Source of the DNA: an uncultured Calditrichaceae bacterium
GTDB lineage: Bacteria; Calditrichota; Calditrichia; RBG-13-44-9; J075
Direction of reading: 5' to 3'
NCBI GenBank assembly: GCA_964416895.1
Contig: CAYQGB010000005.1
Location: forward strand, 1 to 41,070
Length of the DNA stretch: 41,070 bases
Shown: positions 273 through 40,617 of the stretch, in pieces
Position numbering within the stretch: position 1 is the stretch's first letter
How the letters are laid out: each line of letters opens with the position of its first letter
Position numbers and translations under genes: made by a program
Notes under the pieces: model-generated
Told to the model about the DNA's origin: nothing
The model's database searches: none
The model's input: the letters and a program-made list of their open reading frames with translations, nothing else

Positions 273-701
273 GGAGTAGCCACTCAGGTGGGTGGGCTGA
301 GCGATCACCTGGGTTACGGTCTGGAAAACGCCGCCTATGCTGTGTTGCCGGAAATCTTGAAAACTCGCTACAATATCCAGGTGGAGAAGCTATATCGCAC
401 CAATGTGGTGTATTCCCTCAAAGAGAACAAATATGACGAAGTAAACATCTTCGGAGAAGGGGTTCGCAACGGCCAGAAGATATATGTGGTGGGTGAGTGC
501 AAGTCTCGATTTGGAACTCGCAACCTTCGTCAAATGGAGAGCATGCTCAAACGGTTGGAGAAACATCTGGATGCTCCGATTTTCCCCATGGTACTGGCCC
601 ATCATTATCATCCCCAGGCGGAAGCGCTATTGAAGCAGCGCGACATTCCCTATATATGGTCATACGAACTGAAAACGAGTGATAATTTCGCCAACAATTA
701 A
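3..701 (+). CDS. 5'-truncated coiled-coil tandem-repeat protein with C-terminal PD-(D/E)XK-like domain (DUF3782/'chordopoxvirus fusion protein'-like)
   Basis: Frame is open from the window edge; repeated MEELAEAQKRTEQRLDSLA; C-terminal EVNI...GECK resembles a PD-(D/E)XK motif. Confidence 0.8.
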   Translation: MAQRMEELAEAQKRTEQRLDSLTQRVDSLAQRMEELAEAQKRTEQRLDSLARRMEELAEAQKRTEQRLDSLARRMEELAKAQKRTEQRLDGVATQVGGLSDHLGYGLENAAYAVLPEILKTRYNIQVEKLYRTNVVYSLKENKYDEVNIFGEGVRNGQKIYVVGECKSRFGTRNLRQMESMLKRLEKHLDAPIFPMVLAHHYHPQAEALLKQRDIPYIWSYELKTSDNFANN

Positions 702-4423: not shown

Positions 4424-4616
4424 AAGCCTCCCCAGAGTTGTTTTGTCGATGATCAGCCAAAAGTAGTCCGTATCAAGTTAATGGTTATAAACGAAAATCA
4501 CAAACATTAGAAAATGTTTGTTGGGGGATGGTCATGAGAGAATGGAATCGAATGCTCCGGGCGTCGATACAACAGCAGGGGTAGAGACAAAGACCCGACC
4601 TCCCCAGAAGGGCAAT

Positions 4617-5546
4617 TCAGCGAGGTTCTCGAGATTTGATCAAAGTGATGGAATTTCCGGCCTCATTAAAATACACTTCGTCGATGACATGGCGAATTAG
4701 CAGAAACCCCCTCCCATAAGCTTCCGTACTCCCCTGATAGAACTGGTTGGATTCGCCGACATATCGGCGCCAGTCAAACCCCGGTCCTTCATCCGCAATC
4801 GTGAGGGAGAAACGTTCCGGGTTGAACAGGAAAGAGATTTTCACCAGGCGGTTACCGTAGTGAGGATCCTTCATACGCTCCTGTCGCAGCCTGTCAAACT
4901 CTCCCAATTTCTGAAAATCATCTCCCTTGATCGACGAGGGTAGTTCCAGGTTCCCGTGTTCAATAGCGTTGATCAGAGTTTCGATGAAGGCCATGTAATA
5001 CTGATGATACTCCTCCTGATCGCAAAATCCTGAATTTACCAGGAAACGGGCCAGATAATCGGCCATTACCGCCTCATTTAATTCTCTGGTGGGAACCTCC
5101 CAATTTATACTCATGGCCTGGGTGAACCGGAAAATGCGTTCCTTCAGTTGAGCGCTAATTCGATGCCGAAGCACCTTTTCCACAATTTTCCGCACTTCAC
5201 TAAGCTCGAACGGCTTGGTGATGTAATCAATCGCCCCATGCTTGATGGCGGAAATCGCATAATCCAGAGTTTTCAGGCCGGTAATGATGATCACCGGCAG
5301 CCCCTGGCGAATACTTCGGGCTACCTGAAGGAAATCAATCCCGGACATCCCCGGAAGGTCAATATCGGTAATCACCAGGTCCAGGCCATTCTCTTTCCGG
5401 ACCAGGTCGATTCCCCTCTCGGCGGTAGGCGCTTCCAGCACCACATAATCCAGGGAGCGGAAATATTCGCACAACATGTTCAGAATGGCTTCCTCATCAT
5501 CAATGATGAGAATGCGAGGGGGTCTTTCCACGGAAGTGTGCGGCAT
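4617..5546 (-). CDS. Receiver domain fused to RsbW-like anti-sigma/Ser kinase (HATPase_c_2)
   Basis: REC (IDDE, TDIDLPG, KPF) plus ETLINAIEHGN, DEGPGFD, GRGFLLI boxes. Confidence 0.85.
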   Translation of the reverse strand: MPHTSVERPPRILIIDDEEAILNMLCEYFRSLDYVVLEAPTAERGIDLVRKENGLDLVITDIDLPGMSGIDFLQVARSIRQGLPVIIITGLKTLDYAISAIKHGAIDYITKPFELSEVRKIVEKVLRHRISAQLKERIFRFTQAMSINWEVPTRELNEAVMADYLARFLVNSGFCDQEEYHQYYMAFIETLINAIEHGNLELPSSIKGDDFQKLGEFDRLRQERMKDPHYGNRLVKISFLFNPERFSLTIADEGPGFDWRRYVGESNQFYQGSTEAYGRGFLLIRHVIDEVYFNEAGNSITLIKSREPR

Positions 5547-21537: not shown

Positions 21538-22764
21538 TTAATATTCAAAACGGTATCGATAAAAGTTCAACAGCAGGCCGATCATCCACATGTTGGTCAG
21601 CATGGCGCTTCCCCCGTAGCTGATGAACGGCAGGGGCAGACCGGTCACCGGGAACAATCCCACGGTCATGCCTACATTCACAAACATGTGAAAACCGAGA
21701 ATGGTGGCAAATCCAATGGCGGCAATGCTGTTGAAACGGTTTTTGAACATGTTGGCATCGTACACGATGCGGCACAACAGGACGGCAAATAACAACAGAC
21801 CGATCAAGACGCCGAAGAAACCGAACTCTTCCCCGATGACGGCAAAGATAAAATCGGTGTGCTGTTCGGGAAGAAAGCGCAACTGTGTCTGAGAGCCGTG
21901 AAGAAAGCCTTTTCCGAAAAATCCTCCTGAGCCAATGGCAACTTTCGACTGGATGATCTGATACCCCGCTCCCAGGGGATCGGCTTCCGGATTCAAAAAG
22001 GTCAAAATCCGCTGCTTCTGGTAGTCCTTAAGGTGGTTCCATATTGCCGGGGTCAACAGCCCTACTCCTACATTCAGTCCCAGGTGCAACACCTTCCACC
22101 AGAACCCGCTCTCCCAGTATATCAAATAGATTAGCAGCAACACCATCACCGCTCCAAAAGCATAGCGATTGAACGACGCGGCCATCACCAGGCCGGGAAA
22201 AATAAACAGGGGCAAATTTTCCGGCTTCAATCCGGCCCAGAAAATGATCGGGAGGGCCAGCACGGCAAACACCAGGGCGGTTCCCAGATCCGGCTGGCGG
22301 GCAATGAGTACGAAAGGTACCAGAATGATGGTTGCCGCGATGGTAAAGGTTTTCCAGTGGTTAATATCCAGTCGGCGATCGGAAAGATACCGGGCAACCG
22401 CCAGGACGGTGGCGACTTTGGCAAATTCCGAGGGCTGAAATCCAATGCCGCCGATGCGTAGCCAGCGGGTGGCGCCGTAGCCGGTGCTTCCCCAGAAATA
22501 CACCAGAATCAGCAGAACAATCGCTCCCCCGTACAACAGATAGGCGGTCAGGAAAAAGAACCGATGGGGAAAGAGAAACGCCGTTGCCAGCATCACCACC
22601 AGTCCCATGGTAATCCACTGGATCTGGGAGATAAAATAATTGGCCTGAGAACCGGACTGGAGCAGCGATTGGGTAATGGAATAGATAGCCACCAGGCCCA
22701 TGGCCAGCAGTCCCAACACACTCCCCAACAGCAGAAAATCAATATCTTTGAGGCGAAATTTCAT
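21538..22764 (-). CDS. rodA: Rod shape-determining protein RodA (SEDS)
   Basis: GATRW, QPSEFAK, QPDLGT, LPEQHTDFIF, PFISYGGS; follows mrdA. Confidence 0.95.
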   Translation of the reverse strand: MKFRLKDIDFLLLGSVLGLLAMGLVAIYSITQSLLQSGSQANYFISQIQWITMGLVVMLATAFLFPHRFFFLTAYLLYGGAIVLLILVYFWGSTGYGATRWLRIGGIGFQPSEFAKVATVLAVARYLSDRRLDINHWKTFTIAATIILVPFVLIARQPDLGTALVFAVLALPIIFWAGLKPENLPLFIFPGLVMAASFNRYAFGAVMVLLLIYLIYWESGFWWKVLHLGLNVGVGLLTPAIWNHLKDYQKQRILTFLNPEADPLGAGYQIIQSKVAIGSGGFFGKGFLHGSQTQLRFLPEQHTDFIFAVIGEEFGFFGVLIGLLLFAVLLCRIVYDANMFKNRFNSIAAIGFATILGFHMFVNVGMTVGLFPVTGLPLPFISYGGSAMLTNMWMIGLLLNFYRYRFEY

Positions 22765-24644
22765 TGCGGTTCATCCTCGATGATTTCGGGGGTTTCTCCG
22801 GTTTCCGGCTCCAGCGCCCCGGCGGCCTGCAAGCTATCCTGACGGGCCTGTTCCCGTCGTTTGGCCCACAAAGCCCGCAAAAATCGCTGTTCCTCCTGAT
22901 AGTCGTACAATCCCCGGTAGTAAAAATACCGCCGCAGAAATTTTCCCGCAATGGGAGCGGCTACCGCTCCCCCCGATCCTCCGTTCTCCACCAGCACGGC
23001 CACGGCGATCTCCGGGTTTTCATAGGGGGCAAATCCGATATACCAGGCATGGGGTTTTCCGTGGGGATTCTGGGCCGTGCCGGTTTTCCCCGCCCCGGTA
23101 AGGCCGTACACTCCGGCCCGCCAGCCGGTGCCCCCGGCCACCACCTGGCGCATGCCTTCGCGAACAAATTGAAACACCTCCGGCTTGATGTCTTCAATAC
23201 GATGTGGCCGGGGATGATAGTTTTCTACTTCCCCGGTGATTTTATCCACCAGCCGATACCGCAGATGAGGGGGATAGTACACTCCACCGTTGGCCAGAAT
23301 CATGGCAAATTGGGCCATTTGCAGGGGAGTGACCAGCAGCTCTCCCTGACCAATGGCCAGATTCGCCAGCATGCCGGTGGTCCATCGGCCGGGACCGTAT
23401 TTCCGATCGTAATACTCCCGGCTGGGCACCAGACCGGGATTTTCCGAGGTCAGTTCTATCCCGGTTTTTTTGCCGAACAAAAATTTCCGGCTGTATTTGC
23501 TCCACAGGTCGATGCCGATTTTCTTGCCCAGTTGAAAGAAATAGACGTTGCAGGAGTTTCGGATGGCGGAAATCAGGTTGATCTCTCCGTGTCCATCGGC
23601 AAACCAGCAGTGCACCACCCGCCGCCCGATGCGGGTATAGCCGGGACAAAATGCCGTCCAGTAGGGGGTAATGATTCCTTCGTTCAGGGCGGCAATGGCG
23701 GCGACCATTTTGAAGGTGGAGCCGGGGGGATAGGCCGCCTGGGTGGCTCGATCAAACAGGGGTTTAAGGGTATCGCTGATCAAACGATGCCATAGTTCCC
23801 GATACTGTCCCAGATCGTAATTGGGCCGGGATACCAGAGTCAATACCTCCCCGTTCTGCACATTGATGGCCACCAGAGCGCCGGTGCGGTCGCCGAACAG
23901 GGAATCGGCGTATAGTTGCAGGCGAGCGTCGATGGTTAAATACAGGTCTTTCCCCGGAATCGGGGGGGTATCTTTTCCGGAAGAGACTTCTCCGACAACC
24001 CGCCCCAGGGCATCGACTTTGAGATAGCGGTAGCCTTTTTTGCCCCGAAGGGCGGCATCCATCACCCGCTCGACGCCTTTTTTGCCCACCAGATCCCCCT
24101 GCTCATATTCCGGATTTTTTCCCAGTTCGTTCTCGCCAATCTCCCCCAGCGGCCCCAGCACATGGGCAAAGCTTCGGGAAAAGATGTAGTTGCGCCGCGG
24201 TTCCACCTTCCACTCCAGCCCCGGCAAATCCAGTTTGTTTTCCAGCAGGAGGGTCAGGGTGCGCTGATCCACGTGACGGGCGATTTTTACCGGCTGGAAC
24301 CGGCGGGTGGTGTGCAGTTTTTGGCGGATGACCCGGGGCTTTAATCCCAGCACCGCGGCAACGGTGGAAACGGTCGCCGGGGTGGTCAGCGCCGGTACCA
24401 GATAAACGGAGAAGGCCGGACGATTATCGGCGATCAGCCGACCGTTGCGGTCATAAATCAATCCCCGCACCGGTATCCGGGTTTCCACTTTAACGCTGTT
24501 CTTCTCCGATTTTTCTCGATAGATATTTTGTTCCACAATCTGCAGGCTGTAAAACCGAACGGCCAGGATGAAAATCGCCCCGACAATCGCCAGATAGAAT
24601 GCCCAGTGACGGGAAAGGATGATGCGGAAGTTAGTAGGAATCAT
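22761..24644 (-). CDS. mrdA: Penicillin-binding protein 2
   Basis: N-terminal TM, RG.I.DRNG, STFK, SCN, KTG motifs; mre context. Confidence 0.95.
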   Translation of the reverse strand: MIPTNFRIILSRHWAFYLAIVGAIFILAVRFYSLQIVEQNIYREKSEKNSVKVETRIPVRGLIYDRNGRLIADNRPAFSVYLVPALTTPATVSTVAAVLGLKPRVIRQKLHTTRRFQPVKIARHVDQRTLTLLLENKLDLPGLEWKVEPRRNYIFSRSFAHVLGPLGEIGENELGKNPEYEQGDLVGKKGVERVMDAALRGKKGYRYLKVDALGRVVGEVSSGKDTPPIPGKDLYLTIDARLQLYADSLFGDRTGALVAINVQNGEVLTLVSRPNYDLGQYRELWHRLISDTLKPLFDRATQAAYPPGSTFKMVAAIAALNEGIITPYWTAFCPGYTRIGRRVVHCWFADGHGEINLISAIRNSCNVYFFQLGKKIGIDLWSKYSRKFLFGKKTGIELTSENPGLVPSREYYDRKYGPGRWTTGMLANLAIGQGELLVTPLQMAQFAMILANGGVYYPPHLRYRLVDKITGEVENYHPRPHRIEDIKPEVFQFVREGMRQVVAGGTGWRAGVYGLTGAGKTGTAQNPHGKPHAWYIGFAPYENPEIAVAVLVENGGSGGAVAAPIAGKFLRRYFYYRGLYDYQEEQRFLRALWAKRREQARQDSLQAAGALEPETGETPEIIEDEPQ

Positions 24645-25119
24645 CTTCTTCTTGCAACCAGTTGGTCAATAAAAAGGCAATGGGGATTCCCACCAACGAG
24701 GTGTATACCAGGTTGGGGATGATGAATTTCAGGATGATCACCCACCAGGAGATTTCCACCCCCAGGGTGTTGATGTAAAAATAGATCAAATCATGCAAGA
24801 AGCCGCTGATGAACAGGGTAAAGATGAATTCGCTGCGCTCATGGAAGAAATCGCCGATGCGCCCGGCCACAAATCCGGTGACGGTCTTGCTCAATGCTCC
24901 CAATCCCAACAGCCCTCCGGAGATGAGGTCGCTGATCACTCCCAGCAGGAATCCGGCAGTGCTGCCGGCATTCTGGCCGTTGTGCAGGGCAAAGATCACC
25001 AGCATGATCAGGATGAGATCCGGTCGCCAGTTCAGAATATTAATATACTGCACAAAGGTCACCTGAAGCACCAGCGCCACCGCAAAGGCAATCCCATACC
25101 GCAGGTAACGTCTATTCAC
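24631..25119 (-). CDS. mreD: Rod shape-determining protein MreD
   Basis: Hydrophobic, PDL, GF..G...D; between mreC and mrdA; GTG 25119. Confidence 0.88.
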   Translation of the reverse strand: MNRRYLRYGIAFAVALVLQVTFVQYINILNWRPDLILIMLVIFALHNGQNAGSTAGFLLGVISDLISGGLLGLGALSKTVTGFVAGRIGDFFHERSEFIFTLFISGFLHDLIYFYINTLGVEISWWVIILKFIIPNLVYTSLVGIPIAFLLTNWLQEEDDSY

Positions 25120-25927
25120 CGGAGGTTTTCTCCTGCTTTGCCGTGGGCACCACCACAAATACTTCTTCCAGAGCGTCGAAATTTACTGCCGGATCAACCC
25201 GAATTTGCTTGAAAAAATCGTATTCCGTCTCCTCAATCGTGGTGACCACCCCGATTTTGATGCCGGGAGGATAAATCTGACTGTTTCCGGAGGTCACCAC
25301 GACTTCTCCCGGCTCTACCTGAATGTTGCGAGGTATCTGCCGGAGATCCAGCCAGGAGTTGCCCGAACAACTGATGAAACCCACTTCCCGACTGTTTTGC
25401 AACCGCGCGCTGACAAACATGTTTTGATCCAGCAAAATCTGCACGATGGCCTGCCCCGGAGTGGTGGCAATCACCTTGCCCACCAGCCCCTGAGCATTGA
25501 TGACGGCCATGTTTTTGCGTACTCCTTCCCGCTCCCCGATGTCGATGAGCACGGAACGAATGCCCCGTTCGGTACCTTCCGCAATGACCCGGGCGGCGAG
25601 ATATTTGTAGTCGCTGCTCTCTTTTAACCGCAATAACCGACGCAACCGCACGTTTTCCAGCACAATTTCCCGCAGCTTCTGCTGGGTTAACCGCAACCGG
25701 AAGTTTTCTTCTTTCAGGCGATCGTTTTCCCGCAACAACTGCTCCCGGGTGCGCCAGTCAATTTTTAGCCCATCCATGAATTCGATGACCTGCAATAACG
25801 CCCACCGAATTCCCCGCAGGGAAGTGTCATCGCTGAAGTTCATCAACACGGTGGAAAGAAAGACGTAAATCATTAACAATACCAGGGGGCGCTTGAAAAA
25901 GGCCAGATATGGAGGGAGTCGTCTCAT
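25112..25927 (-). CDS. mreC: Rod shape-determining protein MreC
   Basis: TM plus coiled coil (ENVRLRRLL), GLVGKV, VVTSG, YPPGI. Confidence 0.93.
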   Translation of the reverse strand: MRRLPPYLAFFKRPLVLLMIYVFLSTVLMNFSDDTSLRGIRWALLQVIEFMDGLKIDWRTREQLLRENDRLKEENFRLRLTQQKLREIVLENVRLRRLLRLKESSDYKYLAARVIAEGTERGIRSVLIDIGEREGVRKNMAVINAQGLVGKVIATTPGQAIVQILLDQNMFVSARLQNSREVGFISCSGNSWLDLRQIPRNIQVEPGEVVVTSGNSQIYPPGIKIGVVTTIEETEYDFFKQIRVDPAVNFDALEEVFVVVPTAKQEKTSGE

Positions 25928-25980
25928 TGGCTGCAAACAAAGAGGTTTTAACCTGATTACGGGAGAGGTTGCGGGAGCTT

Positions 25981-26136
25981 CAGGGCGCTTAAGCGCCCTT
26001 GCTATCCGGCGGCGTTAAGGGCGCTTAAGCGCCCTTCATTCCGGGGCGGCGGTGGCCGGGATGCAAGCGAACCTCAAGGGCGCTTAAGCGCCCTTCCTGC
26101 CCGGGCCGGCGGCGTCAAGGGCGCTTAAGCGCCCTT
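25981..26136. repeat. Array of four 20-bp palindromes AAGGGCGCTTAAGCGCCCTT (REP/BIME-like)
   Basis: Copies at 25981 (first base C), 26017, 26076 and 26117; spacers 16, 39 and 21 bp. Confidence 0.92.
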
Positions 26137-26205
26137 CCCTCCCCCGGCGCCACATCCGGAAACCGGCATCCCCGGCTATCTCGAGAGTCCTGCCCAACCG
26201 GCCTC

Positions 26206-27234
26206 TCACAACCGCCGATTGCCCTTAATCAGCACTTTTTGATACCGGGCATAATTTTCCAGAATGCGACCGGTTCCCCGGGCCACGCAACTCAGAGGGT
26301 CTTCGGCCACATTCACCGGTAGCCGGGTTTCCTGCATAATCCGATCATCCAGTCGCCGCAGCAACGCCCCTCCCCCGGTCAAAATAATCCCCCGATCCAG
26401 AATATCGGCGGCCAGCTCCGGCGGTGTATGTTCCAGAGTAATCTTAATCGTCTCCACAATCGTATTGATCGGCTCATTCAGGGCCTCCCGAATCTCCACC
26501 GAGGTGACCTCTTCGGTCTTGGGAATACCGTTTACCAGATCCCGTCCTTTCACCGTGGTGGTAATTTCTTCTTCCAGAGGCAGGGCCGAGCCGATCTCGC
26601 ACTTCAAATTCTCGGCGGTCTTCTCTCCGATCAGCAGGTTATAATTCTTCTTAAAATACTGCACGATGGCTTCGTTCATCTCATCGCCGCCGATGCGGAT
26701 CGAGGTATGCAGAACGATCCCGTTGAGAGAAATAACCGCAATCTCCGAGGTGCCCCCGCCGATATCCACGATCATATTGCCCACAGGCTTGTCGATCTCC
26801 AGGCCGATCCCGATGGCCGAGGCCATGGCTTCCGGCACCAGCGCCACCTCCCGGGCACCGGCGCGTTCGGCGCTATCCCGCACCGCTCGTTTCTCCACCT
26901 CGGTCACCCCGGAAGGCACGCACACCACAATCTTATCAATGCTAATCCGATTGACCCTGGCCTTCTTGATAAACTCCCGGATCATCGCTTCGGTGGCCTC
27001 AAAATCGGCAATCACCCCGTCCTTCAGCGGGCGGATGGTGATAATATCCCGGTGCGTGCGTCCCAACATCTCCCGGGCTTCTCGTCCCACCGCCACAATC
27101 CGGTGATTATGCTCCTCAAATGCCACAATAGAGGGTTCATTGACAACGATGCCTTTACCCTTAACATAGATCAGCGTATTGGCCGTTCCCAGATCAATGC
27201 CCAAATCGGTAGAAAAAAAGTCAAACAGCCCCAT
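26206..27234 (-). CDS. mreB: Rod shape-determining protein MreB
   Basis: DLGTANT, EPSIVA, DIGGGT, TGGGALL. Confidence 0.97.
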   Translation of the reverse strand: MGLFDFFSTDLGIDLGTANTLIYVKGKGIVVNEPSIVAFEEHNHRIVAVGREAREMLGRTHRDIITIRPLKDGVIADFEATEAMIREFIKKARVNRISIDKIVVCVPSGVTEVEKRAVRDSAERAGAREVALVPEAMASAIGIGLEIDKPVGNMIVDIGGGTSEIAVISLNGIVLHTSIRIGGDEMNEAIVQYFKKNYNLLIGEKTAENLKCEIGSALPLEEEITTTVKGRDLVNGIPKTEEVTSVEIREALNEPINTIVETIKITLEHTPPELAADILDRGIILTGGGALLRRLDDRIMQETRLPVNVAEDPLSCVARGTGRILENYARYQKVLIKGNRRL

Positions 27235-27248
27235 AGTCCTGCGCATCC

Positions 27249-28808
27249 TCAATGTTTAAAGTGTCGTCTTCCTGTGAATATCATGGTCATGCCGTGTTCA
27301 TCGGCAGCCTGAATGACTTCTTCATCTCGAATCGAACCTCCCGGCTGGATAACTGCACTCACCCCGGCTTTAGCGGCTTCGTCGATGCCATCGCGAAAGG
27401 GAAAAAAGGCATCCGAGGCCAGCACCGTATCGGTCAACTCCCGCCCGGCTTTCTCCGCTTTCATTCGGGCAAACTCCACCGCATCCACCCGGGACATCTG
27501 TCCCGCGCCCACGCCATACAGCTCCCCGTCCTTCGCCAGCACAATAGCGTTGGATTTCACATGCTTCACCACCTTCCAGGCGAACTCCATATCCTCCCAT
27601 TCCCCATCGGTGGGAGAGCGTCGGGTCACCACCCGCCAATCTTGCGGTGTTTCCCGGAGATCATCCGGTTGCTGCAACAGATAAGCCCCCGAAAGCGGCT
27701 TGATTTCGTAGGCGCCTCTCAAAAACGTTTCCGGAGAAAGTTTCAACAACCGCAGATTTTTTTTTCGTCTTAGCCGTTCCAGCGCTCCAGGAGAGAAATC
27801 CGGAGCGATAATGCATTCCAGAAAGATTTTGCTCATCTCTTCGGCGGTGGCGGCGTCTATTTCCCGGTTGCAGGCCACAATCCCCCCAAAAGCCGACACC
27901 GGATCCCCTTGCAGCGCCCGACGATAGGCATGGATCAGATTTTCCGAATCCACCGCCGCCCCACAGGGATTGGTATGCTTCACAATCACCGCCGCCGGCA
28001 GAGAAAACTCCAGCGCCAGAGCGTAGGCCGCCTGCACATCCACATAATTGTTGAAAGAAAGCGGCTTGCCCCCCAACTGCTCCATTTCGGCCATCCCCCG
28101 GGGAGTTTCTCCAAATGGCCGATACAACGCCGCCGCCTGATGGGGATTCTCCCCGTAGCGGAGATCGGTAACCTTTTCCAGATGACAGGTCTGATACCGG
28201 GGCAGGGAGGCCTCCGGCTCTACCTGAGCAGAAAAGTAGGCTTGAATTTGGCCGTCATACCAGCCGGTGTAAAAAAACACCTCCTGCGCCCGCCGCCGAC
28301 TGTAGTGTTCCGGAATCGCCCCCTGATGAGCATTCAACTGCGCCAGAAACTCCTCATATTGCCCCGGATGATGCAGCGCCACCACAAACCGATAATTTTT
28401 GGCCGCCGCTCGCAGCAGGGCCGGCCCCCCGATGTCGATAAATTCCACCGCCTCCTCCGGCGCCAACCCCTTTTCCAGCGCCGCTTCTACAAAGGGATAC
28501 AGGTTGACCACCACCAGTTGAATGGGCTGTACCCCCAGCGTCTGTAAATCCTGTTGATGTTCCGGTGAGTCGGTGGCCAGAATGGCCGCATGAATTCGAG
28601 GATGGAGCGTTTTGACCCGCCCACCCAGCACCTCCGGCGACTGAGTGAGGGCTTCCACGCGGGTCACCGGGAGATGATGCTGTTCCAGAAAGGTAGCCGT
28701 CCCGCCGCTGGAGATTATCTCCACACCGTGGGCTTGCAGCCCCCTGGCAAGTTCGGTCAATCCCTGTTTATCCCAGCAACTGAGCAGGGCGCGCTGAATC
28801 CGTATCAT
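27249..28808 (-). CDS. purH: Bifunctional AICAR transformylase/IMP cyclohydrolase
   Basis: GRVKTLHP, IDIGGP, LRYGENPHQ, KHTNPCG, ASDAFFPF, RHFKH. Confidence 0.97.
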   Translation of the reverse strand: MIRIQRALLSCWDKQGLTELARGLQAHGVEIISSGGTATFLEQHHLPVTRVEALTQSPEVLGGRVKTLHPRIHAAILATDSPEHQQDLQTLGVQPIQLVVVNLYPFVEAALEKGLAPEEAVEFIDIGGPALLRAAAKNYRFVVALHHPGQYEEFLAQLNAHQGAIPEHYSRRRAQEVFFYTGWYDGQIQAYFSAQVEPEASLPRYQTCHLEKVTDLRYGENPHQAAALYRPFGETPRGMAEMEQLGGKPLSFNNYVDVQAAYALALEFSLPAAVIVKHTNPCGAAVDSENLIHAYRRALQGDPVSAFGGIVACNREIDAATAEEMSKIFLECIIAPDFSPGALERLRRKKNLRLLKLSPETFLRGAYEIKPLSGAYLLQQPDDLRETPQDWRVVTRRSPTDGEWEDMEFAWKVVKHVKSNAIVLAKDGELYGVGAGQMSRVDAVEFARMKAEKAGRELTDTVLASDAFFPFRDGIDEAAKAGVSAVIQPGGSIRDEEVIQAADEHGMTMIFTGRRHFKH

Positions 28809-30600: not shown

Positions 30601-31494
30601 TTACGACCCTTTCCATTCCAGCCGAAACGGCTCCGCCTGTAGCCGGGCGGCAACGCCCGAAGGAAAGGGAAGGGCATTGGAGAAGTGACCGTAGGGAAGG
30701 TTATACACGATGGGAACCTCCGGCCCCACCAGAGGCGTAATCAGGGGCAAAACATCCTGTTCGGTCTCATCCAGCAGGAATTTCCCCAATAGCAGCCCGG
30801 CGACATTTTCCCAGAATCCCATCAGCCGCAACTGTTGAAAATACCGATCAATCCGATACAACGGCTCGTTCACATCTTCCAGCGCCAGAATAATCGGCTC
30901 CGCTTTCGGCCAGAAGGGCGTGCCACACAGGGTGCAGATCATCGACAACGTGCCCGCCATTAGAGTCCCCGAAGCCTCTCCCGAACGAAACGCCTGCACC
31001 GATTCTCCCGATAGGTCGCGAGCAACGAGCGCTTTCCGCTGCCCGCTCAGAATTTCCAGCCCCACAGAAACATACCGGTTTTCCGGGCGAGTCTGGGTGG
31101 TCAACGTCAGGCCGCTGAGAGAAGGTAGCCCCAGACGGGCATACAACGCCCATTGCAACGCCGTAATGTCGCTGAACCCTACCAGAATTTTGGGGTGCCC
31201 CCGGAACAGGCCGTACTCCAGCCGATCCAGCAACTGAATACTACCGTACCCTCCCCGCAAGGCCCAGATGACCTTCACCTCCTCATCGGCCACAAAAGTA
31301 TGCAGATCTTCCAGCCGCCGTTCCACCGGAGCGGAGGTCAGGCCGTTATCGGAAAAGGCGTGTTGTCCCAATTTGCAGATATATCCCAGGGAAGTAAGAT
31401 AGTCAATGCCCGGCTGGACCTGCTCCCGGCGAACGGCCCCCGCCGGGGACACCAGACCGATTGCATCTCCGGGATTAAGGACGGGCAGGTTCAT
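30601..31494 (-). CDS. ldcA: LD-carboxypeptidase, peptidase S66
   Basis: RGGYG, GFSDIT (Ser), LEDVNE (Glu), YGH (His); ATGA overlap with the ROK gene. Confidence 0.88.
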   Translation of the reverse strand: MNLPVLNPGDAIGLVSPAGAVRREQVQPGIDYLTSLGYICKLGQHAFSDNGLTSAPVERRLEDLHTFVADEEVKVIWALRGGYGSIQLLDRLEYGLFRGHPKILVGFSDITALQWALYARLGLPSLSGLTLTTQTRPENRYVSVGLEILSGQRKALVARDLSGESVQAFRSGEASGTLMAGTLSMICTLCGTPFWPKAEPIILALEDVNEPLYRIDRYFQQLRLMGFWENVAGLLLGKFLLDETEQDVLPLITPLVGPEVPIVYNLPYGHFSNALPFPSGVAARLQAEPFRLEWKGS

Positions 31495-32456
31495 ATCCGG
31501 GTAAGCCCTTCTTCTGAGGTGTCGCCAAAATGGCTCAGGGCAAAGGCGGCCGCGCCCAGCCACCCCGCTTTGTTCCCTAATGTCGCCCGAACAATTTCCA
31601 GATTTTCCAGCGCCGGCTCCATTGCCCGCTCCCGGGCAGCCCCGGCAATGCGCTCCACAAACCAGTCCCCCGCTTCACTCACTCCCCCGCCGATGATGAT
31701 CTTCCGGGGATTGAAAATGTTGATCAGATTGGCAATCCCCACCGCCACCATCCGAATTTCGGTTTCCACCACCTGCTGCGCCGCCGGTTCGGAAGCGTGA
31801 TAGCGCTCAAAAATCGTTCGGGTATCGCTCACCGGGTCGTCGGGATTGAGTTGGGCATAGTGTTCGATCATGGCCGTGGCCGAGGCGTAACGCTCCCAGC
31901 AGCCAACACCCCCACACCGACAGGGATGCCCGTTGTAGCAAATGCTCATGTGCCCCAATTCCGCTCCGGCATACATGCTCCCCCGGAACAGCTTGCCGTC
32001 GATAATCACTCCCCCACCGATACCGGTTCCCAGAGTAATGCACACCACCTGATCGCTTCCCTGTCCCGCGCCGAAGCGCGCCTCTCCAAAGGCCATGACA
32101 TTGGCGTCGTTATCCACAAACACGGGAATTTGCAGCCGATCCTCCATCCGGCGTTTGATGGGCACATTGCGCCAGTGCTTGAAGTTCGGAGTATTGCCTT
32201 TCAGGAACCCTTCTTCTACATCCACGCTACCGGGAGTTCCCAGGCCAATAACCTCGATGGACATTCCCTGAGACCGGGCGAACGCCAACGCCTCCTCGGC
32301 CGCTTCAATAAGATGCTCCAGGATGGCATCTACCGGACTGTCCGCGTGGGTAGGGCGGGAAAATTCCCGGACAATTTCTCCCTCCCGGGAGCAAATCCCG
32401 TATTTGATCGCCGTCCCCCCCAGATCAATGCCGATCGCGTACCGGGTTTTCTTCAT
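31491..32456 (-). CDS. ROK family sugar kinase
   Basis: GIDLGGT, DNDAN, TLGTGIGGG, ELGH, CRCG..GCWE. Confidence 0.92.
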   Translation of the reverse strand: MKKTRYAIGIDLGGTAIKYGICSREGEIVREFSRPTHADSPVDAILEHLIEAAEEALAFARSQGMSIEVIGLGTPGSVDVEEGFLKGNTPNFKHWRNVPIKRRMEDRLQIPVFVDNDANVMAFGEARFGAGQGSDQVVCITLGTGIGGGVIIDGKLFRGSMYAGAELGHMSICYNGHPCRCGGVGCWERYASATAMIEHYAQLNPDDPVSDTRTIFERYHASEPAAQQVVETEIRMVAVGIANLINIFNPRKIIIGGGVSEAGDWFVERIAGAARERAMEPALENLEIVRATLGNKAGWLGAAAFALSHFGDTSEEGLTRI

Positions 32457-35501: not shown

Positions 35502-36113
35502 TTATTTGCCCTGCATATCGATTAAGGTGTCCACCAGTTCCACGGAAGCTTCTTCCATGTCGGTGATCAGCTTATCGATACGGGAGGTGGCCCAATTATA
35601 GAAGAACTGAATGATGATCGCCACTATCAGACCGAAGGCGGTAGTCAACAGGGCCTGAGAAATCCCCCCGGCCACGATGGCCGGCGAAATATCGTTAGCG
35701 GTTTCAATCGCCTCGAACGCCACAATCATTCCCCATACCGTACCGGTAAACCCCAGCAGGGGAGCAATCACGATCACAAACCCCAGCCAGACCATTCCCC
35801 GCTCCAGAAAGGCCATCTCAATAGAACCGGCATTGGTAATGGCTTTTTCGGCATTCTCAATCCCATCCTTGGCCCGGCTCAATCCGGCATGCATAATCGA
35901 GGCCACCGAACCGCGGGTATTTTCGCAAATTTCCAGCGCCTGATTGATTCCACCTTTCTTCAAAGCGGCGCGAATATCGGCCATAAACTTGCGCGTATTC
36001 ACACCGTGCATATACAGGGTATACAGCTTCCAGATTCCGATGGCAAGTCCTACGATTCCGAAAATCAGAATCGGCCACATGAACATGCCGCCCTTGAGAA
36101 ATAGCTCGACCAT
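35502..36113 (-). CDS. exbB: MotA/TolQ/ExbB proton channel protein
   Basis: APLLGFTGTVWGMI, GISQALLTTAFGL. Confidence 0.93.
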   Translation of the reverse strand: MVELFLKGGMFMWPILIFGIVGLAIGIWKLYTLYMHGVNTRKFMADIRAALKKGGINQALEICENTRGSVASIMHAGLSRAKDGIENAEKAITNAGSIEMAFLERGMVWLGFVIVIAPLLGFTGTVWGMIVAFEAIETANDISPAIVAGGISQALLTTAFGLIVAIIIQFFYNWATSRIDKLITDMEEASVELVDTLIDMQGK

Positions 36114-36180
36114 AACAGAAAGCCTCCTCAGTTCAATTAAAAGTTAGCCAAACCAGTTTAGTTTCAGCAAAATCCGGCAA

Positions 36181-36209
36181 ATATTACGGATTGTATCCCA
36201 AAAAGTCAA
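36181..36209 (-). promoter_or_regulatory. Sigma70 promoter TTGACT-N17-TAATAT of the exbB operon
   Basis: Near-consensus boxes with 17-bp spacer. Confidence 0.6.
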
Positions 36210-36627
36210 TATTTTTTTTGGAGCGAGATTCGATGCGCTTGAGGCAAGTTCGGCGTAAATATCGCCATACCAAAAGCGGATTGTCAGATGCGTATCGCCT
36301 GGCGAGGTTCGGCACCCCCCCATCCCGCCGGGAGTGGATGGAACAGCCACGGGGAAACCGCGCGGGCACATTTATCGGAAACCGGGGGATCGTATCTCAT
36401 CCGGAGAGATAGTTACAAAAAAGGGAATAATTTTCCCCAGAAGTTGATTATATTTGTAACCGGAAAAAATGAAGACATTGCCCCCTGCAGCAAACGGGGA
36501 AACGGGCATTCGGGAGAAGCAGTTTCCGCCTCCCGGCAGCAGATACCCTCCGGAAATTTGCCCCGGCGAACCGCCGTGGAGGGCAATGGTTCTGACAGTC
36601 TTTGAGTAGCGGGAAAGCACCGCGAGT

Positions 36628-38109
36628 ATGGCAAATCTGATCTTCATTTGCGAAGCTTCTTCAGAGCTGGCTCAACAGCTTACCGCCGCCCTGGAAAAAG
36701 AAGGGGTGACCGGGAAAGTTTTCGCCAGCTTCACCGAGCTGCGGGAAAACGCCGCTCGCACGGTGCCGGATGCCGTGGTGCTCAATGCCGCGATTTCTCC
36801 GGATGAGCAGGCCTCCCGGCAGCTATTCCAGGAAATTCCCACCGTCATCTATGGGCAGGGCCTGTCCATAGAAGAACAACTGGCCCTGTACGATGAAGGG
36901 GTCAAACGCTACCTTCCCCTGGATGAGACCCTCCCCACCCGGCTGGCGGCGGTCATCCGGCGCATCCTGTTTCGGATAACCGAACTGCGCCGAATACGAC
37001 AGCAAGCGCTTACCCACGGAACGGTCCAGGCCTTCTCCCTCACCGATGTACTGCAAAACGCCCTGGGGGAGCAAAAAAATCTTATTCTCAAATTGCGCCA
37101 CGGGGATTGGATATCCCGGATACGCATCTTCCAGGGGCATATCATTGAAGCCCGCACGCCCAACCTGGCCGATGAGGATGCGGCTCTGAAAATTCTACAT
37201 ATCCCCGCAGGAACCTTTGCCATTCGCGGCTATCGGAAAGCGGAAGCGCTCTCATCGGTACGGGCATCTACCCTGGCGCTGCTGGCCGAAGCCGCCTTCG
37301 AGAAGAAAGAAATCCAGCAGTTTCTGGAACCGTTCCAATCCACCGATCCCCGGTTCGAGGTCATCCCTTCGGAACGACTTACCGAACTATCCTCCGAGGA
37401 ATTGCAGGTGCTGGATCTGGTGGAAGAATTCGGAAACTTTCGGGAGGTGCTACTCCGCAGCCCATTTTCTGTGTTGCGCACGGTGCGGTTGCTGAAAGAG
37501 TTTCTGGAACGAGAAGTAATGGCCCCGGCCGGCAAGGGCCGGGAGGTGGAGACGTTTCAGCCGGAGGATATCCGGTATTTGCGGGAGCATCTGTTTGAAG
37601 ATGAGGTTCACGAAGGACATCTCATCGTGCTGGGGTTGCCCACTTCCGGGCGCACGGAACTGATCCGCACCATCGCCGGCCATCAAAACGCCCCCTTGCG
37701 ATCCCTGCAATCCCTGGACTTTACCCGGCTCCGCCTCCAACCGGGGCTGACCCTGTCCATCTTCGGCATCTCTATCGACGCCGCTTTCCTGCCCATCCTG
37801 GAAAAACTCTCCCAGGCCATGGTGGCGGTGATCTTCCTGATCGACTACACCCGAACCGCTCAGTACGAATTCAGCAACTATGTGCTAAACCAGCTCATTC
37901 GCATCTACGACGTGCCGTTCGTCATCGGATTGACCAATTTGCCCGAAGACGCCGGGGAAGCGGTAACAGAGTTCCATCGGCACTTCACTGTTCCCAAAGG
38001 AATCTCGGTATTGCCGGTGAAAACCGATTCATTTGCCGACATTCGCAGGCTGTTGCATCATCTCCGAAAAGTGCCCACCCGAAAGGATAAGGAAACCACC
38101 AATGCATGA
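36628..38109 (+). CDS. Receiver-like + DUF4388 (PatA-N-like) + degenerate MglA/CvnD-like small GTPase fusion
   Basis: REC-like N-terminus (PDAVVLN), GTVQAFSLTDVLQ...IFQGHIIEA, G1-like GLPTSGRT, LDFTRL...LSIFG, VIFLID, VPFVIGLTN. Confidence 0.7.
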   Translation: MANLIFICEASSELAQQLTAALEKEGVTGKVFASFTELRENAARTVPDAVVLNAAISPDEQASRQLFQEIPTVIYGQGLSIEEQLALYDEGVKRYLPLDETLPTRLAAVIRRILFRITELRRIRQQALTHGTVQAFSLTDVLQNALGEQKNLILKLRHGDWISRIRIFQGHIIEARTPNLADEDAALKILHIPAGTFAIRGYRKAEALSSVRASTLALLAEAAFEKKEIQQFLEPFQSTDPRFEVIPSERLTELSSEELQVLDLVEEFGNFREVLLRSPFSVLRTVRLLKEFLEREVMAPAGKGREVETFQPEDIRYLREHLFEDEVHEGHLIVLGLPTSGRTELIRTIAGHQNAPLRSLQSLDFTRLRLQPGLTLSIFGISIDAAFLPILEKLSQAMVAVIFLIDYTRTAQYEFSNYVLNQLIRIYDVPFVIGLTNLPEDAGEAVTEFHRHFTVPKGISVLPVKTDSFADIRRLLHHLRKVPTRKDKETTNA

Positions 38110-39247
38110 TGTTCTGGTATATGTATCCGATCCTGACGCCTCCGGCGAGGTGGAAGCGCTGTTTTCCGAAGGCTGGTATCGGCTTCAACTGGTGGATCAA
38201 CTTTCCGGGGTGATGGAAATATGCCAGCAGGAGCTTATTGATCTGATCGTGGTCTGGAATCCAACGCCGGATGAGGTGCGGGAATTGCATGGGCAGCTTT
38301 ATGAACAGGGATTTGGCTACATCCCCCTGGTGGCGGTAGTACCCGACGATGCCGACTGGGGTCTTTTCGCCGATCTTCCCCTGGCCGAATTGATCCAGAT
38401 GTCCCTTCCCCGGGCGGAGTTCTTTCATTTATTATATCAAGTGTTGCTGGATGTGGATGTTCAGGCCAGCACGGTGGAGGGAACCAACTGGCAGGGCAGC
38501 CTGGAGGAATACAATCTTATCGACCTGATTCAAATGGTTGAGCACAGCCACCGGGATGCCGAACTGGTGCTGTCCTGGGGCGAACGGGTGGGAAAAGTGT
38601 TCTTCCACGAGGGCAAAATCATCAACGCCCAGTTCGAGCTGCTGCAGGGAATGCCCGCCCTGTATCGGCTGGCGCTGTGGTCCCGGGGACAATTCATGAC
38701 CCGGCTCTCCACCTGGCAATCCCTCAACGATGAAATCGGCCTGAGCAATCAGGAAATTCTGATGTCGCTGGTGGAAAAGCTGCTGAAGATCGGCCAGATT
38801 TCCCGGGGCCTGCCGGATCTGATGGAGCCGATCCTGCGCAACCCGTACGCGGAACTCACCGAATTAACCCCTCTGCAACACAAGATCGTGAATTACTGCG
38901 AGGCCGTTACCACAATTTTTGATCTGTTGATGACCCTGAGCGACGATCTGGAAGAGGTGATGCTGGAAATGAAGGGGCTGTTCCGCATGGGCGTATTGGG
39001 GCGGAAAGAAGATGTGGAGCGGCGTATCCAGGAGGAGAAACAGAAGAGCGGCCTGGGCAAGCTGGTTTCGTCTATCTCCTCGGTGTTTCGCAAAAAGCCG
39101 GCTTCGCAATCCCTGTTGCCGGAAGATGATTTCGTTCCCGAAGACCAGCTTCCCCCGGCCCAACCCCGGGTGAAGATTCCTCCGCTTCAACTGGATGAAA
39201 ACACGCTGCAACGGATTCACCACCGAATAGAGGCATTGGGGCGATGA
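38102..39247 (+). CDS. Receiver-like + DUF4388 domain protein
   Basis: IDLIVVW REC-like strand; QGSLEEYNLIDLIQ...GKVFFHEGKIINA...W.RGQF; ATG 38102 overlaps the upstream gene. Confidence 0.75.
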   Translation: MHDVLVYVSDPDASGEVEALFSEGWYRLQLVDQLSGVMEICQQELIDLIVVWNPTPDEVRELHGQLYEQGFGYIPLVAVVPDDADWGLFADLPLAELIQMSLPRAEFFHLLYQVLLDVDVQASTVEGTNWQGSLEEYNLIDLIQMVEHSHRDAELVLSWGERVGKVFFHEGKIINAQFELLQGMPALYRLALWSRGQFMTRLSTWQSLNDEIGLSNQEILMSLVEKLLKIGQISRGLPDLMEPILRNPYAELTELTPLQHKIVNYCEAVTTIFDLLMTLSDDLEEVMLEMKGLFRMGVLGRKEDVERRIQEEKQKSGLGKLVSSISSVFRKKPASQSLLPEDDFVPEDQLPPAQPRVKIPPLQLDENTLQRIHHRIEALGR

Positions 39248-39729
39248 AGTTTATCGAAACCGCGGTAATCGCTCAACATCCCCGGGATCTGGAAGCACTG
39301 ATGGGATTTTTAGAGGCGGATCGGGAAACCGTGGCCGGGGTGGAAGTGTACCGCTTTGAAATCGACACCGATTTGATTGCCCTGCTATACGATTTCCATC
39401 CCGAAAAGGCGCTTCCGGAAGCGGTATTGGAACATCTGAATCCCCATCTGGAGGCCCTGTTGCTGATGGTTCAGAAGCCTTTTGAGGAAACCGACAGGGA
39501 ACTGGCGGCGCACATGAACCGAATCGCCTCTACCTTTTCTCATCTTCCCACCATTATGGCCGTGCGGATAACCCCGGAAAGCCTGGCCGCACTGCCTGCC
39601 CCGATTCGAGAACAGGGGTTATTCCTCTCTTCCCGGGGGCGGATGATGTTCTGGCATCCTTCCGACCGGGATTCTCAGGCACGCATCTGGGAGATGCTCT
39701 GGCATCAACTTCCCCGGCATCAATCCTGA
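39244..39729 (+). CDS. Hypothetical protein, possibly a highly degenerate small-GTPase fold
   Basis: ATGA overlap; beta/alpha pattern parallels the C-terminal domain of 36628-38109. Confidence 0.6.
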   Translation: MKFIETAVIAQHPRDLEALMGFLEADRETVAGVEVYRFEIDTDLIALLYDFHPEKALPEAVLEHLNPHLEALLLMVQKPFEETDRELAAHMNRIASTFSHLPTIMAVRITPESLAALPAPIREQGLFLSSRGRMMFWHPSDRDSQARIWEMLWHQLPRHQS

Positions 39730-39753: not shown

Positions 39754-40617
39754 ATGGAAACAACTCGCAGCGTTTACATCGGTCTGGATATCGGGGGCAC
39801 CAAAACGCTGGTGGCTGCCGCCACGGAAACGGGCCGGATTCTTACCCTGCGCCGGGCCGATACCCCCCTTAAACTTGCACAAGGGCTACAACTGATCAAG
39901 GATTTGACCCGGGAGGTAGCCCAGGGGGCCACCATTCGGGGAATGGGTGCTGCCGTGGGTGGGCCGCTGGAATACCGCACCGGGGTGGTCTCTCCGCTGC
40001 ACCAGCCGGAATGGCGAGAGGTTCCCCTGAAGCAGATCATGGAGACCGAATTTCAGGCCCCCTTCACCGTGGATGTGGATACCAATCTGGCCGCGCTGGG
40101 AGAATACACCTTCGGCGGGGAACGCTCCTCCCGGCTGTTGTACATCACCCTGAGCACCGGGATGGGCGGAGGCCTCCTCCTCGAGGGGGAAATTTACCGG
40201 GGCGTCGATGGCGCGCATCCGGAAGTGGGGCACCAGGCCATTCCCTTTCGCTGCGCCTATCCGGAGCGGGTGCAGTGCGAGTGCGGGGCGCCGGATTGCC
40301 TGGAAGGCCTCATTTCCGGGAACGCCATCCGGCGCATTTACGGGAAACCACCCGAAGCGCTCACCGATGCAGAATGGGCAGAGGTGGGATATAACCTGGG
40401 GCAGGGCCTGCGCAACGCCGCCGCGCTGTATGCCCCGGAAGTCATCGTGCTGGGAGGAGGGGTGGCTTTGGGTGGCGGGGAAAAGCTGCTGACACCGGCC
40501 CGGGAAGTGCTCCGTCGCCACCTGAATATTGTGCCCGTGCCGGAAGTGCGGCTCAGCCATCTGCAGGATCAAGCCCCGCTGATGGGCGCCATCGCGGTAG
40601 CGATACGTAACCAATAG
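39754..40617 (+). CDS. ROK family sugar kinase/regulator
   Basis: GLDIGGT, DVDTN, TLSTGMGGG, EVGH, CECG..DCLE. Confidence 0.9.
   Translation: METTRSVYIGLDIGGTKTLVAAATETGRILTLRRADTPLKLAQGLQLIKDLTREVAQGATIRGMGAAVGGPLEYRTGVVSPLHQPEWREVPLKQIMETEFQAPFTVDVDTNLAALGEYTFGGERSSRLLYITLSTGMGGGLLLEGEIYRGVDGAHPEVGHQAIPFRCAYPERVQCECGAPDCLEGLISGNAIRRIYGKPPEALTDAEWAEVGYNLGQGLRNAAALYAPEVIVLGGGVALGGGEKLLTPAREVLRRHLNIVPVPEVRLSHLQDQAPLMGAIAVAIRNQ

Follow-up and report, generated by a model that had tools for sequence, protein, structure and literature searches.

What is left for a small G domain to do when the chemistry of its switch is gone? Small GTPases and receiver domains are textbook molecular switches. 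A module of three genes from an uncultured Calditrichaceae bacterium combines folds of both kinds, and in it the residues by which such domains usually switch have been lost. The module was found in a stretch of 41,070 nucleotides of contig CAYQGB010000005.1, here called the window, and its members are referred to as genes 1, 2 and 3 (Table 1). Gene 1 encodes a receiver-like domain, a PATAN (DUF4388) domain, a helical linker and a C-terminal G domain; genes 2 and 3 look like a split copy of this architecture, as argued below from sequence comparison. Given the loss of the usual switching residues in its receiver- and small-GTPase-like domains, the triad probably forms a docking complex that is fixed and does not switch on and off.

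A preliminary description of this DNA had reported three translationally coupled genes with overlaps of 8 bp and 4 bp; coordinates and overlaps proved exact. Gene 2 starts with the ATG at 38102, inside a TTG open reading frame (ORF) listed at 38033-39247. This ATG (38102-38104) precedes the TGA of gene 1 (38107-38109), and an AAGGA-rich stretch lies directly before it. Genes 2 and 3 overlap in ATGA at 39244-39247. The motifs quoted for gene 1, namely VVLN, GLPTSGRT, GISID and TNLP, were all present where the description had put them.

The C-terminal domain of gene 1 had been likened to the GTPases MglA and CvnD, a claim that turned on the presence of a P-loop small-GTPase fold. AlphaFold2, supplied with an alignment of 21 sequences, modelled residues 296-493 in the small-GTPase order beta1-loop-alpha1-beta2-beta3 and onwards, with a predicted local distance difference test score (pLDDT) of 88.4 and a predicted template modelling score (pTM) of 0.84. 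Foldseek matched the model to Arl3, Arf and Sar1 at E ~1e-8. VIA-align gave Z-scores of 16.0 for Arf (root mean square deviation 2.7, 146 residues aligned), 14.9 for Sar1 and 14.3 for Myxococcus xanthus MglA (5ymx; root mean square deviation 3.4, 156 residues aligned). From these models we are confident that the C-terminus of gene 1 has a small-GTPase fold. A sequence profile of the domain, run against the PDB, returned as top matches Arf/Arl/Sar/Rab-type proteins exclusively, all of them weak (best E 0.0017), and Pfam gave a sub-threshold match to Arf (E 0.066).

The same profile was searched against 1.84 billion representative sequences and yielded 653 matches at E ≤ 1e-3, of which 213 had E ≤ 1e-10 and 60 had E ≤ 1e-30; the best of the 653 have the same architecture of about 490 residues as gene 1. 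All 14 scanned matches longer than 600 residues contained Pfam Response_reg and DUF4388. Among the scanned short matches (173-206 residues), 10 of 13 were ATP_bind_1/Ras proteins, several of which carry GxxxxGKT, MDFGRI and FGTPGQ; TPGQ was found in 7/25 short representatives with an aligned P-loop region. Because short relatives carry these three motifs, the alignment of GLPTSGRT, SLDFTRL and FGISID to the MglA/CvnD family is correct, and among stand-alone proteins those closest in sequence to the gene 1 G domain are, by their motifs, of the MglA group 2-5/CvnD type, as the description had suggested. The genome's own MglA, compared by single-sequence hhalign, gave insignificant scores with the profiles of the gene 1 G domain (E 0.15) and of gene 3 (E 0.25).

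The receiver-like domains had been described as lacking the phospho-acceptor Asp, and they do lack it. A profile of residues 1-125 of gene 1, built from 21 orthologues, matched response regulators in the PDB (8svz at E 6.8e-8 over residues 1-113, NtrC at 4.3e-6, FrzS at 1.3e-4); neither gene 1 nor gene 2 gave a Pfam Response_reg match at E ≤ 1. The diagnostic columns of gene 1 read EANGL, that is, E and A at the acidic pair, N at the phospho-acceptor, G at the Thr/Ser and L at the Lys position. In the orthologue profile the Thr/Ser and Lys columns are not conserved, and Asp occupies the phospho-acceptor column in 4/21 orthologues. In gene 2, hhalign placed Trp52 opposite Asn53 of gene 1. By this alignment neither receiver is phosphorylatable, since no phospho-acceptor Asp is present in gene 1 or gene 2. 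Five long relatives of the receiver-PATAN-G type were also inspected: P0098, P0100, P0112 and P0144 carry Glu at the phospho-site (LSEVNLP in three, LTETNLP in one) and keep Thr and Lys, and P0074 keeps Asp. The Glu-bearing domains can be described as phosphomimic-like atypical receivers.

The PATAN domains that had been read from the sequence of genes 1 and 2 both reached the Pfam gathering score of 25 bits, and a scan of the whole genome for DUF4388 found both again, the one in gene 1 at 37015-37311. The resemblance of the two proteins extends further. Residues 5-306 of gene 2 were aligned by hhalign to residues 4-306 of gene 1 with a probability of 99.6% (E 5.2e-24, 297 columns); by this comparison gene 2 is a paralogue of the first ~306 residues of gene 1. 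Its C-terminal extension contains a candidate amphipathic helix (Table 1). The hydrophobic moment of the 14-residue window 318-331 was 0.66, a value reached by 0.3% of 5000 shuffles; conservation over residues 317-334 (18 columns) was 0.593 as compared to 0.505 for the whole protein. The motif is kept throughout an alignment of 18 sequences and is followed by an acidic tail. It is a possible membrane-targeting helix. NCBIfam gave zero matches for all three proteins.

Gene 3, which gave no Pfam match, encodes a second G domain. Its AlphaFold2 model (pLDDT 91.5, pTM 0.87) was matched by Foldseek to YsxC/EngB, G-alpha, Arf and KRas at E ~1e-5, and VIA gave Z-scores of 12.3 for Sar1, 11.7 for Arf and 10.2 for MglA; all 50 matches listed by VIA are G-domain or G-domain-like folds. 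After strand 1 the protein reads VIAQHPRD, hence there is no Walker A motif. The motif is likewise absent from 16 orthologues and from 22 long-form relatives, and these long forms keep an FGR...LHLYG pattern. As modelled, gene 3 fits the concept of a pseudoGTPase, a G fold with its nucleotide-binding motifs missing. A word-index homologue search returned eight proteins for gene 1 and, for gene 3, gene 3 itself alone; synteny and profiles were therefore needed to find its relatives. A direct hhalign comparison of gene 3 with the gene 1 G domain gave E 1.6e-4 over 142 in-register columns, but a probability of only 51%. Decisive for paralogy were the long-form gene 3-like ORFs, whose E-values with the profile of the gene 1 G domain range from 1e-6 to 3e-16. 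By these profile matches, gene 3 and the gene 1 G domain are paralogues. Its neighbours in the ESM Atlas comprise ATP_bind_1/Ras/Arf clusters and a 485-residue Calditrichota PatA_N cluster (TM 0.63). The gene 3 profile was also run against PDB sequences; the sole matches, a designed protein and annexins, were rejected. Since gene 2 is paralogous to the first ~306 residues of gene 1, genes 2 and 3 together resemble a second copy of gene 1 that has been split in two.

Binding between gene 3 and the gene 1 G domain was assessed with a complex model in which each chain had its own alignment. The score was 0.61 (runs 0.60, 0.61 and 0.64) as compared to 0.00 for the best control; a mark of 0.61 was reached by 58/80 solved complexes and by 2/110 mismatched pairs, a calibration that is only rough for self-made alignments. 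The runs agreed in at least 77% of contacts, with a partner pLDDT of at least 80. On gene 1 the modelled interface comprises residues 337-338 (P-loop), 383-389 (switch II) and 409-425 (alpha3, including the invariant Tyr418); on gene 3 it comprises residues 79-82, 107-129 (including the invariant Gly125 and Leu128), 134 and 136. The model supports docking of gene 3 on that side of the gene 1 G domain which bears the P-loop, switch II and alpha3.

Synteny of the three genes, on which the preliminary description had also staked its reading, was confirmed. The gene 1 profile matched 40/41 related genomes, and the gene 1 G-domain profile had exactly one match in 80/86 genomes of the phylum and in 49/53 of the high-quality ones. 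In all 20 fetched loci of relatives (L numbers below) a gene 2-like ORF adjoins the gene 1 orthologue. At L027:3354-4534 (- strand) the gene 2 orthologue is divided between two frames that overlap, owing either to a frameshift or to an error in the assembly, and the gene 2 ORF listed at L022:3413-4438 (+ strand) begins about 33 residues later than elsewhere. A gene 3-like ORF was found by BLASTP in 16/20 loci; three more, L039, L041 and L040, have at the same place an ORF of 153-170 residues that matches the gene 3 profile (E 6.9e-12, 5.7e-5 and 0.0067), and the remaining locus, L035, ends inside gene 2. Tight spacing or overlaps between the triad genes recur in relatives. Furthermore, with long receiver-PATAN-G proteins as query, 69 metagenome loci were found, some of them near-identical contigs; in 29/32 of those of at least 9 kb, gene 1-, gene 2- and gene 3-like ORFs follow in that order on one strand. 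The co-occurrence of the triad is far beyond chance. The ratio of nonsynonymous to synonymous substitution rates (dN/dS) was <0.21 in all three genes wherever computable; dS was saturated, so this value shows merely that dN is far below dS. Decay of pseudogenes was considered and rejected, as frames are intact (bar L027 and L022), the module is kept phylum-wide and dN is far below dS.

With moderate confidence, and reasoning by analogy, we propose that the triad is a constitutive complex in which one architecture is present twice, once fused and once split, and that it acts as an adaptor. The three proteins would form one complex containing two copies of a receiver-PATAN-linker-small-GTPase arrangement, one fused in gene 1, the other divided, with receiver-PATAN-linker in gene 2 and the G domain in gene 3. 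Both G domains would descend from MglA-family GTPases (group 2-5, CvnD-like), and all switch chemistry would be disabled here: the receivers lack Asp, gene 1 has Arg and GISID, and gene 3 has no P-loop. Gene 3 is predicted by one model to dock onto the gene 1 G domain; genes 1 and 2 may pair via their paralogous receiver-PATAN halves, which would yield a pseudo-symmetric assembly, and the amphipathic helix of gene 2 could tether this assembly to the membrane. Such an adaptor would be independent of hydrolysis and phosphorylation, and its task would be to place or recruit a machine of the envelope or of polarity, without toggling. The preliminary description had likewise imagined a scaffold or localisation complex; the gene 1-gene 3 model supports the complex, and its function is something that we infer.

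The role suggested for the adaptor is based on analogy to PATAN proteins that act on the type IV pilus motor and occur near MglA/MglB. According to the accessible part of a preprint, PATAN regulators bind this motor, with PATAN as the protein-binding module for PilB1 and PilC (bioRxiv 10.1101/2021.06.11.447907); genes for MglA/MglB neighbour PATAN genes in the material available from the same preprint and from PMC4316618. The pseudo-receiver of FrzS works through protein binding, as described in the sections of PMC11580455 at hand.

Several results weigh against the adaptor. Conservation was no higher in the interface columns of the model than in other columns (gene 1, p 0.20; gene 3, p 0.45; one-sided Mann-Whitney test), and the complex score, based on self-made alignments, is calibrated only roughly. 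Single-copy near-universality, together with the synteny with RlmD-like and SpoU genes (10/14 loci, see below), fits housekeeping at least as well as motility. Finally, the P-loop has not been lost everywhere. Among 41 gene 1 orthologues, the 21 used above plus 20 more from other families of the phylum, a canonical Walker A motif [GA]xxxxGK[ST] was found in 15, a full-length loop with GR[ST] in seven including the window, GRN in two, a loop shorter by two residues with GRS kept in two, and other sequences in 15. Walker A Lys predominates in families f2, f3 and f4. In f1, the family of the window, Arg takes its place in 10/11 members, even where the loop is two residues shorter, which argues against simple drift of the P-loop. 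Taken together, GK[ST] in 15/41 orthologues and the kept Arg in f1 imply that the pocket may still bind phosphate or nucleotide.

The foremost alternative is a nucleotide-dependent device, in which the G domain of gene 1 would use its Gly-rich loop, with Lys or Arg, to bind GTP or ATP and, as in small G proteins deficient in GTPase activity, would be locked in a single state or turn over very slowly, and gene 3 would be a dedicated regulator on the switch II face, similar to a guanine nucleotide dissociation inhibitor, a GTPase-activating protein (GAP) or a co-GTPase. Besides the conserved Lys and Arg, the last Gly of the loop is nearly invariant, most families retain the Thr of the DFT motif in the members sampled, and modelled gene 3 contacts both P-loop and switch II. 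MglA groups 2-3 deviate in G4 as well, yet CvnD9 hydrolyses GTP, according to the part of PMC4316618 available. However, G3 is gone in 41/41 orthologues: TPGQ/GTPGQ occurs in none, and neither the Gly of DxxG nor the Gln remains. Where NKxD would be expected, TNxxxD-like strings are found. Whole lineages retain the gene although its P-loop can no longer be recognised (f5, 0/4 sampled; f6, 5/9); among 106 full-length representatives (at least 450 residues), GK[ST] was present in 22, GR[ST] in 13 and neither in 71. Furthermore, the invariant Arg37 of gene 3 lies outside the modelled interface. We consider such a device unlikely. Judged from these motifs, canonical-type catalysis looks lost throughout the gene 1 family, and binding of phosphate or nucleotide may persist in part of it. 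For the earlier statement that every signalling domain looks catalytically dead, and for the expectation that homologues would lack GKT and GTPGQ, the outcome is mixed: GTPGQ is absent (0/41) and the receivers are without Asp, but GK[ST] survives in 15/41.

G-domain proteins frequently serve as assembly factors, and an RNA or ribosome maturation role was weighed at the upstream border of the module. In 10/14 loci of relatives (L026, L029, L031, L032, L034 and L037-L041), spanning at least five families of the class, genes for an RlmD-like m5U methyltransferase of the 23S-rRNA type (TRAM and tRNA_U5-meth_tr, ~460 residues) and a SpoU 2'-O-methyltransferase (~180 residues) immediately precede the gene 1 orthologue on its strand; in L038 there is a 4-bp overlap between the SpoU gene and that orthologue. 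The best Foldseek matches of gene 3 include the ribosome-biogenesis GTPase YsxC/EngB, and a near-universal single copy suits housekeeping. However, the pair is not upstream of gene 1 in the window, L023 and L024, so the linkage is not obligatory, and where present it may be inherited gene order alone. No RNA-binding domain was found in Pfam scans of the module proteins or the linker, the similarity to YsxC is that of a generic G fold, for which Arf, Sar1, Ras and G-alpha score alike, and receiver and PATAN domains suggest partners in signalling or polarity. A role in RNA maturation therefore appears improbable. DNA binding by genes 1 and 2 through a winged-helix-like segment after PATAN is highly improbable: the linker is helical and conserved between both genes, and weak single matches were seen (DUF742 in 1/39 linkers at E 0.0025, a MarR chain at E 0.26), but a 39-sequence profile of it gave no credible helix-turn-helix or other fold match in PDB or Pfam, its top match being a designed TIM barrel, and the PATAN preprint, in its accessible part, opposes such a role for PatA-type proteins (10.1101/2021.06.11.447907).

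The proposed adaptor of fused and split copies was compared with known systems. The analysis of Wuichet and Sogaard-Andersen (PMC4316618) defines, in the part available, MglA groups 2-5 including CvnD and is aimed at single-domain GTPases. The triad shares with these groups the G fold, the motif positions aligned above, and a Gly in place of the Asp of DxxG, as in GTPGQ. Unlike them, its G domain is fused behind receiver and PATAN domains, the gene 1 family has lost TPGQ in 41/41 members and, in the window, the Walker A Lys to Arg; Roadblock/MglB, DUF742 and kinase genes are not nearby, and a P-loop-less G domain is the partner instead. Measured against the family's defining motifs, the window has GLPTSGRT for G1 (GxxxxGK[ST]), FGISID for G3 (TVPGQ in group 1, GTPGQ in groups 2-5) and TNLPED for G4 ([NT]KxD), the last a motif in which groups 2-3 also deviate (PMC4316618, available part). 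Family members are single-domain proteins, as a rule with an MglB/Roadblock gene within four genes; gene 1 is multidomain, and no Roadblock gene was found in the window. By these motifs gene 1 is not a member of the MglA family.

The MglA/MglB polarity switch of Myxococcus and Thermus, with its neighbouring PATAN genes, likewise brings together domains of the small-GTPase, PATAN and receiver types; the triad has no Roadblock GAP and no catalytic G3, is by its residues not phosphorylatable and would be unable to cycle as MglA does. PatA-type regulators (PatA; PixG and PixE of Synechocystis) join PATAN to a CheY-like domain, as far as the available descriptions go, with PATAN at the N-terminus, whereas in the triad the receiver comes first, is non-phosphorylatable and is followed by extra linker and G-like domains. 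Given the reversed order and the absent Asp, the triad proteins are not PatA-type regulators. FrzS of Myxococcus xanthus has a receiver fold without phosphorylation residues and acts by protein binding in a polarity pathway (PMC11580455, sections at hand); unlike the triad it has a coiled-coil C-terminus and neither PATAN nor a G domain. An actinobacterial conservon needs a histidine kinase, the Roadblock protein CvnB, the DUF742 protein CvnC and CvnD. The triad adjoins neither kinase nor Roadblock gene, and DUF742 had no match over the cut-off in 41 related genomes; by its domain content the triad is not a conservon.

Eukaryotic pseudoGTPases such as CENP-M and the pG domains of p190RhoGAP keep the G fold, have lost the nucleotide motifs and serve as interaction modules. 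The triad resembles them by concept, in its G fold without nucleotide-binding motifs; it differs in being bacterial and in having a partly degenerate and a fully P-loop-less G domain in one operon.

The same genome also contains a canonical sensory MglA/MglB operon with PATAN and kinase, on contig C96 (locus L060:1901-8209, - strand). It encodes a PAS-HisKA-HATPase kinase, a receiver, a DUF4388 protein with a weak Roadblock match, a DUF4388-like protein, two unknown small proteins, an sCache-HAMP protein, an MglB-type Roadblock protein and an MglA with GPGMSGKT, TVPGQ and NKRD. The sole Robl_LC7 match of the genome over the cut-off is on this contig. Nine DUF4388 matches, eight of them over the cut-off, and three matches to T2SSE-type (PilB/PilT-type) ATPases were found in the whole genome. 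A "live" system on C96 thus coexists with a "dead" triad in one genome. Going beyond the preliminary description, the present analysis adds this operon, the nature of gene 3 as a P-loop-less G domain and the mirroring of gene 1 by genes 2 and 3.

In its most far-reaching form, which we regard as rather unlikely, the adaptor would be the compact Calditrichota version of an ancient, widespread system. An MglA/CvnD GTPase would have been fused to receiver and PATAN and duplicated, one copy being split; the G domains would have lost their nucleotide chemistry repeatedly and independently, giving a constitutive G:pseudo-G heterodimer within a pseudo-symmetric, membrane-tethered scaffold that organises a core envelope or polarity process. 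A core and not an accessory process is envisaged because the triad is single-copy and near-universal. If this were true, it would be a bacterial counterpart of the eukaryotic pseudoGTPase adaptors; if the scaffold alone were true, Calditrichota and their relatives would possess a core cell-organisation complex that is as yet unstudied. Both switch folds are under purifying selection phylum-wide, and the longer form occurs in many metagenome contigs, while the switching residues decay. One orthologous group thereby offers a natural series, from Walker A Lys to Arg to no loop, along which the question of what a G domain is used for once hydrolysis is gone can be asked. To our knowledge, the MglA/PATAN world has so far consisted solely of separate genes; a fused receiver-PATAN-G architecture and a G:pseudo-G pair are added to it here. 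In openly licensed main texts, neither a receiver-PATAN-G fusion nor a bacterial operon with a G:pseudo-G pair was found described; fused proteins of this kind could be listed in the supplementary tables of PMC4316618.

Table 1. Features of the triad and its immediate neighbours in the window. aa, amino acid residues; nt, nucleotides.
Feature	Position	Strand	Residues	Remarks
Gene 1	36628-38109	+	493 aa	Pseudo-receiver, PATAN/DUF4388, helical linker, degenerate MglA/CvnD-like G domain
Gene 1 pseudo-receiver	36628-36987	+	aa ~1-120	Asn53 in VVLN (aa 50-53, nt 36775-36786) at phospho-Asp column
Gene 1 PATAN/DUF4388	37015-37308	+	aa 130-227	Pfam PF14332, E 1.5e-5; borderline, 25.4 bits vs cut-off 25
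Gene 1 linker	37309-37560	+	aa 228-311	Homologous to gene 2 aa ~227-306
Gene 1 G-like domain	37561-38067	+	aa ~312-480	
Gene 1 P-loop GLPTSGRT	37633-37656	+	aa 336-343	Arg replaces Walker A Lys
Gene 1 SLDFTRL	37711-37731	+		Motif read-out
Gene 1 FGISID	37762-37779	+	aa 379-384	Stands where GTPGQ would be
Gene 1 GLTNLPED	37927-37950	+	aa 434-441	Stands where NKxD would be; follows strand 5
Gene 2	38102-39247	+	381 aa	Pseudo-receiver, PATAN, linker, C-terminal extension
Gene 2 PATAN/DUF4388	38492-38779	+	aa 131-226	Pfam, E 1.1e-13, 51.7 bits
Gene 2 amphipathic helix candidate	39050-39097	+	aa 317-332	GLGKLVSSISSVFRKK
Gene 3	39244-39729	+	161 aa	G-domain fold without Walker A
exbB-like gene	35502-36113	-		Divergent from gene 1; part of exbB-exbD-exbD-tonB cluster
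Intergenic region, presumed promoter region	36114-36627			514 bp, unusually long; between divergent exbB-like gene and gene 1
ROK-family kinase gene	39754-40617	+		24 bp 3' of gene 3; Pfam ROK E 7.6e-51

The surroundings of the module were also analyzed. In the intergenic region before gene 1 no Rfam match was found at E ≤ 1 and the + strand showed no sigma-70-like site, site numbers being no higher than in shuffles; promoter and terminator scans of the locus gave chance level. The sole Rfam match, to a long noncoding RNA model at 40360-40494 (20.6 bits vs a gathering score of 70, E 0.34), was rejected. The gap between gene 3 and the ROK gene is devoid of a terminator-like site on the + strand, and the ROK gene is possibly co-transcribed with the triad; a ROK gene follows gene 3 in 5/20 loci of relatives, but the gene is outside the conserved core. 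A second ROK-family kinase gene lies at 31491-32456 (- strand).

In line with the preliminary description, neither a Roadblock protein nor a kinase turned up close to the module in a Pfam scan of the window; receiver, HisKA and HATPase_c_2 domains come no closer than 3368-5546, more than 31 kb away. They belong to an odd signalling pair, consisting of a 352-residue protein in which two receiver stretches are combined with a HisKA segment (3365-4423, - strand) and a receiver fused to a HATPase_c_2 (anti-sigma-kinase-like) domain (4617-5546, - strand). Additionally, a cell-shape cluster, mreB-mreC-mreD-PBP2-rodA, is located at 21538-27252 (- strand), about 10 kb upstream of the module.

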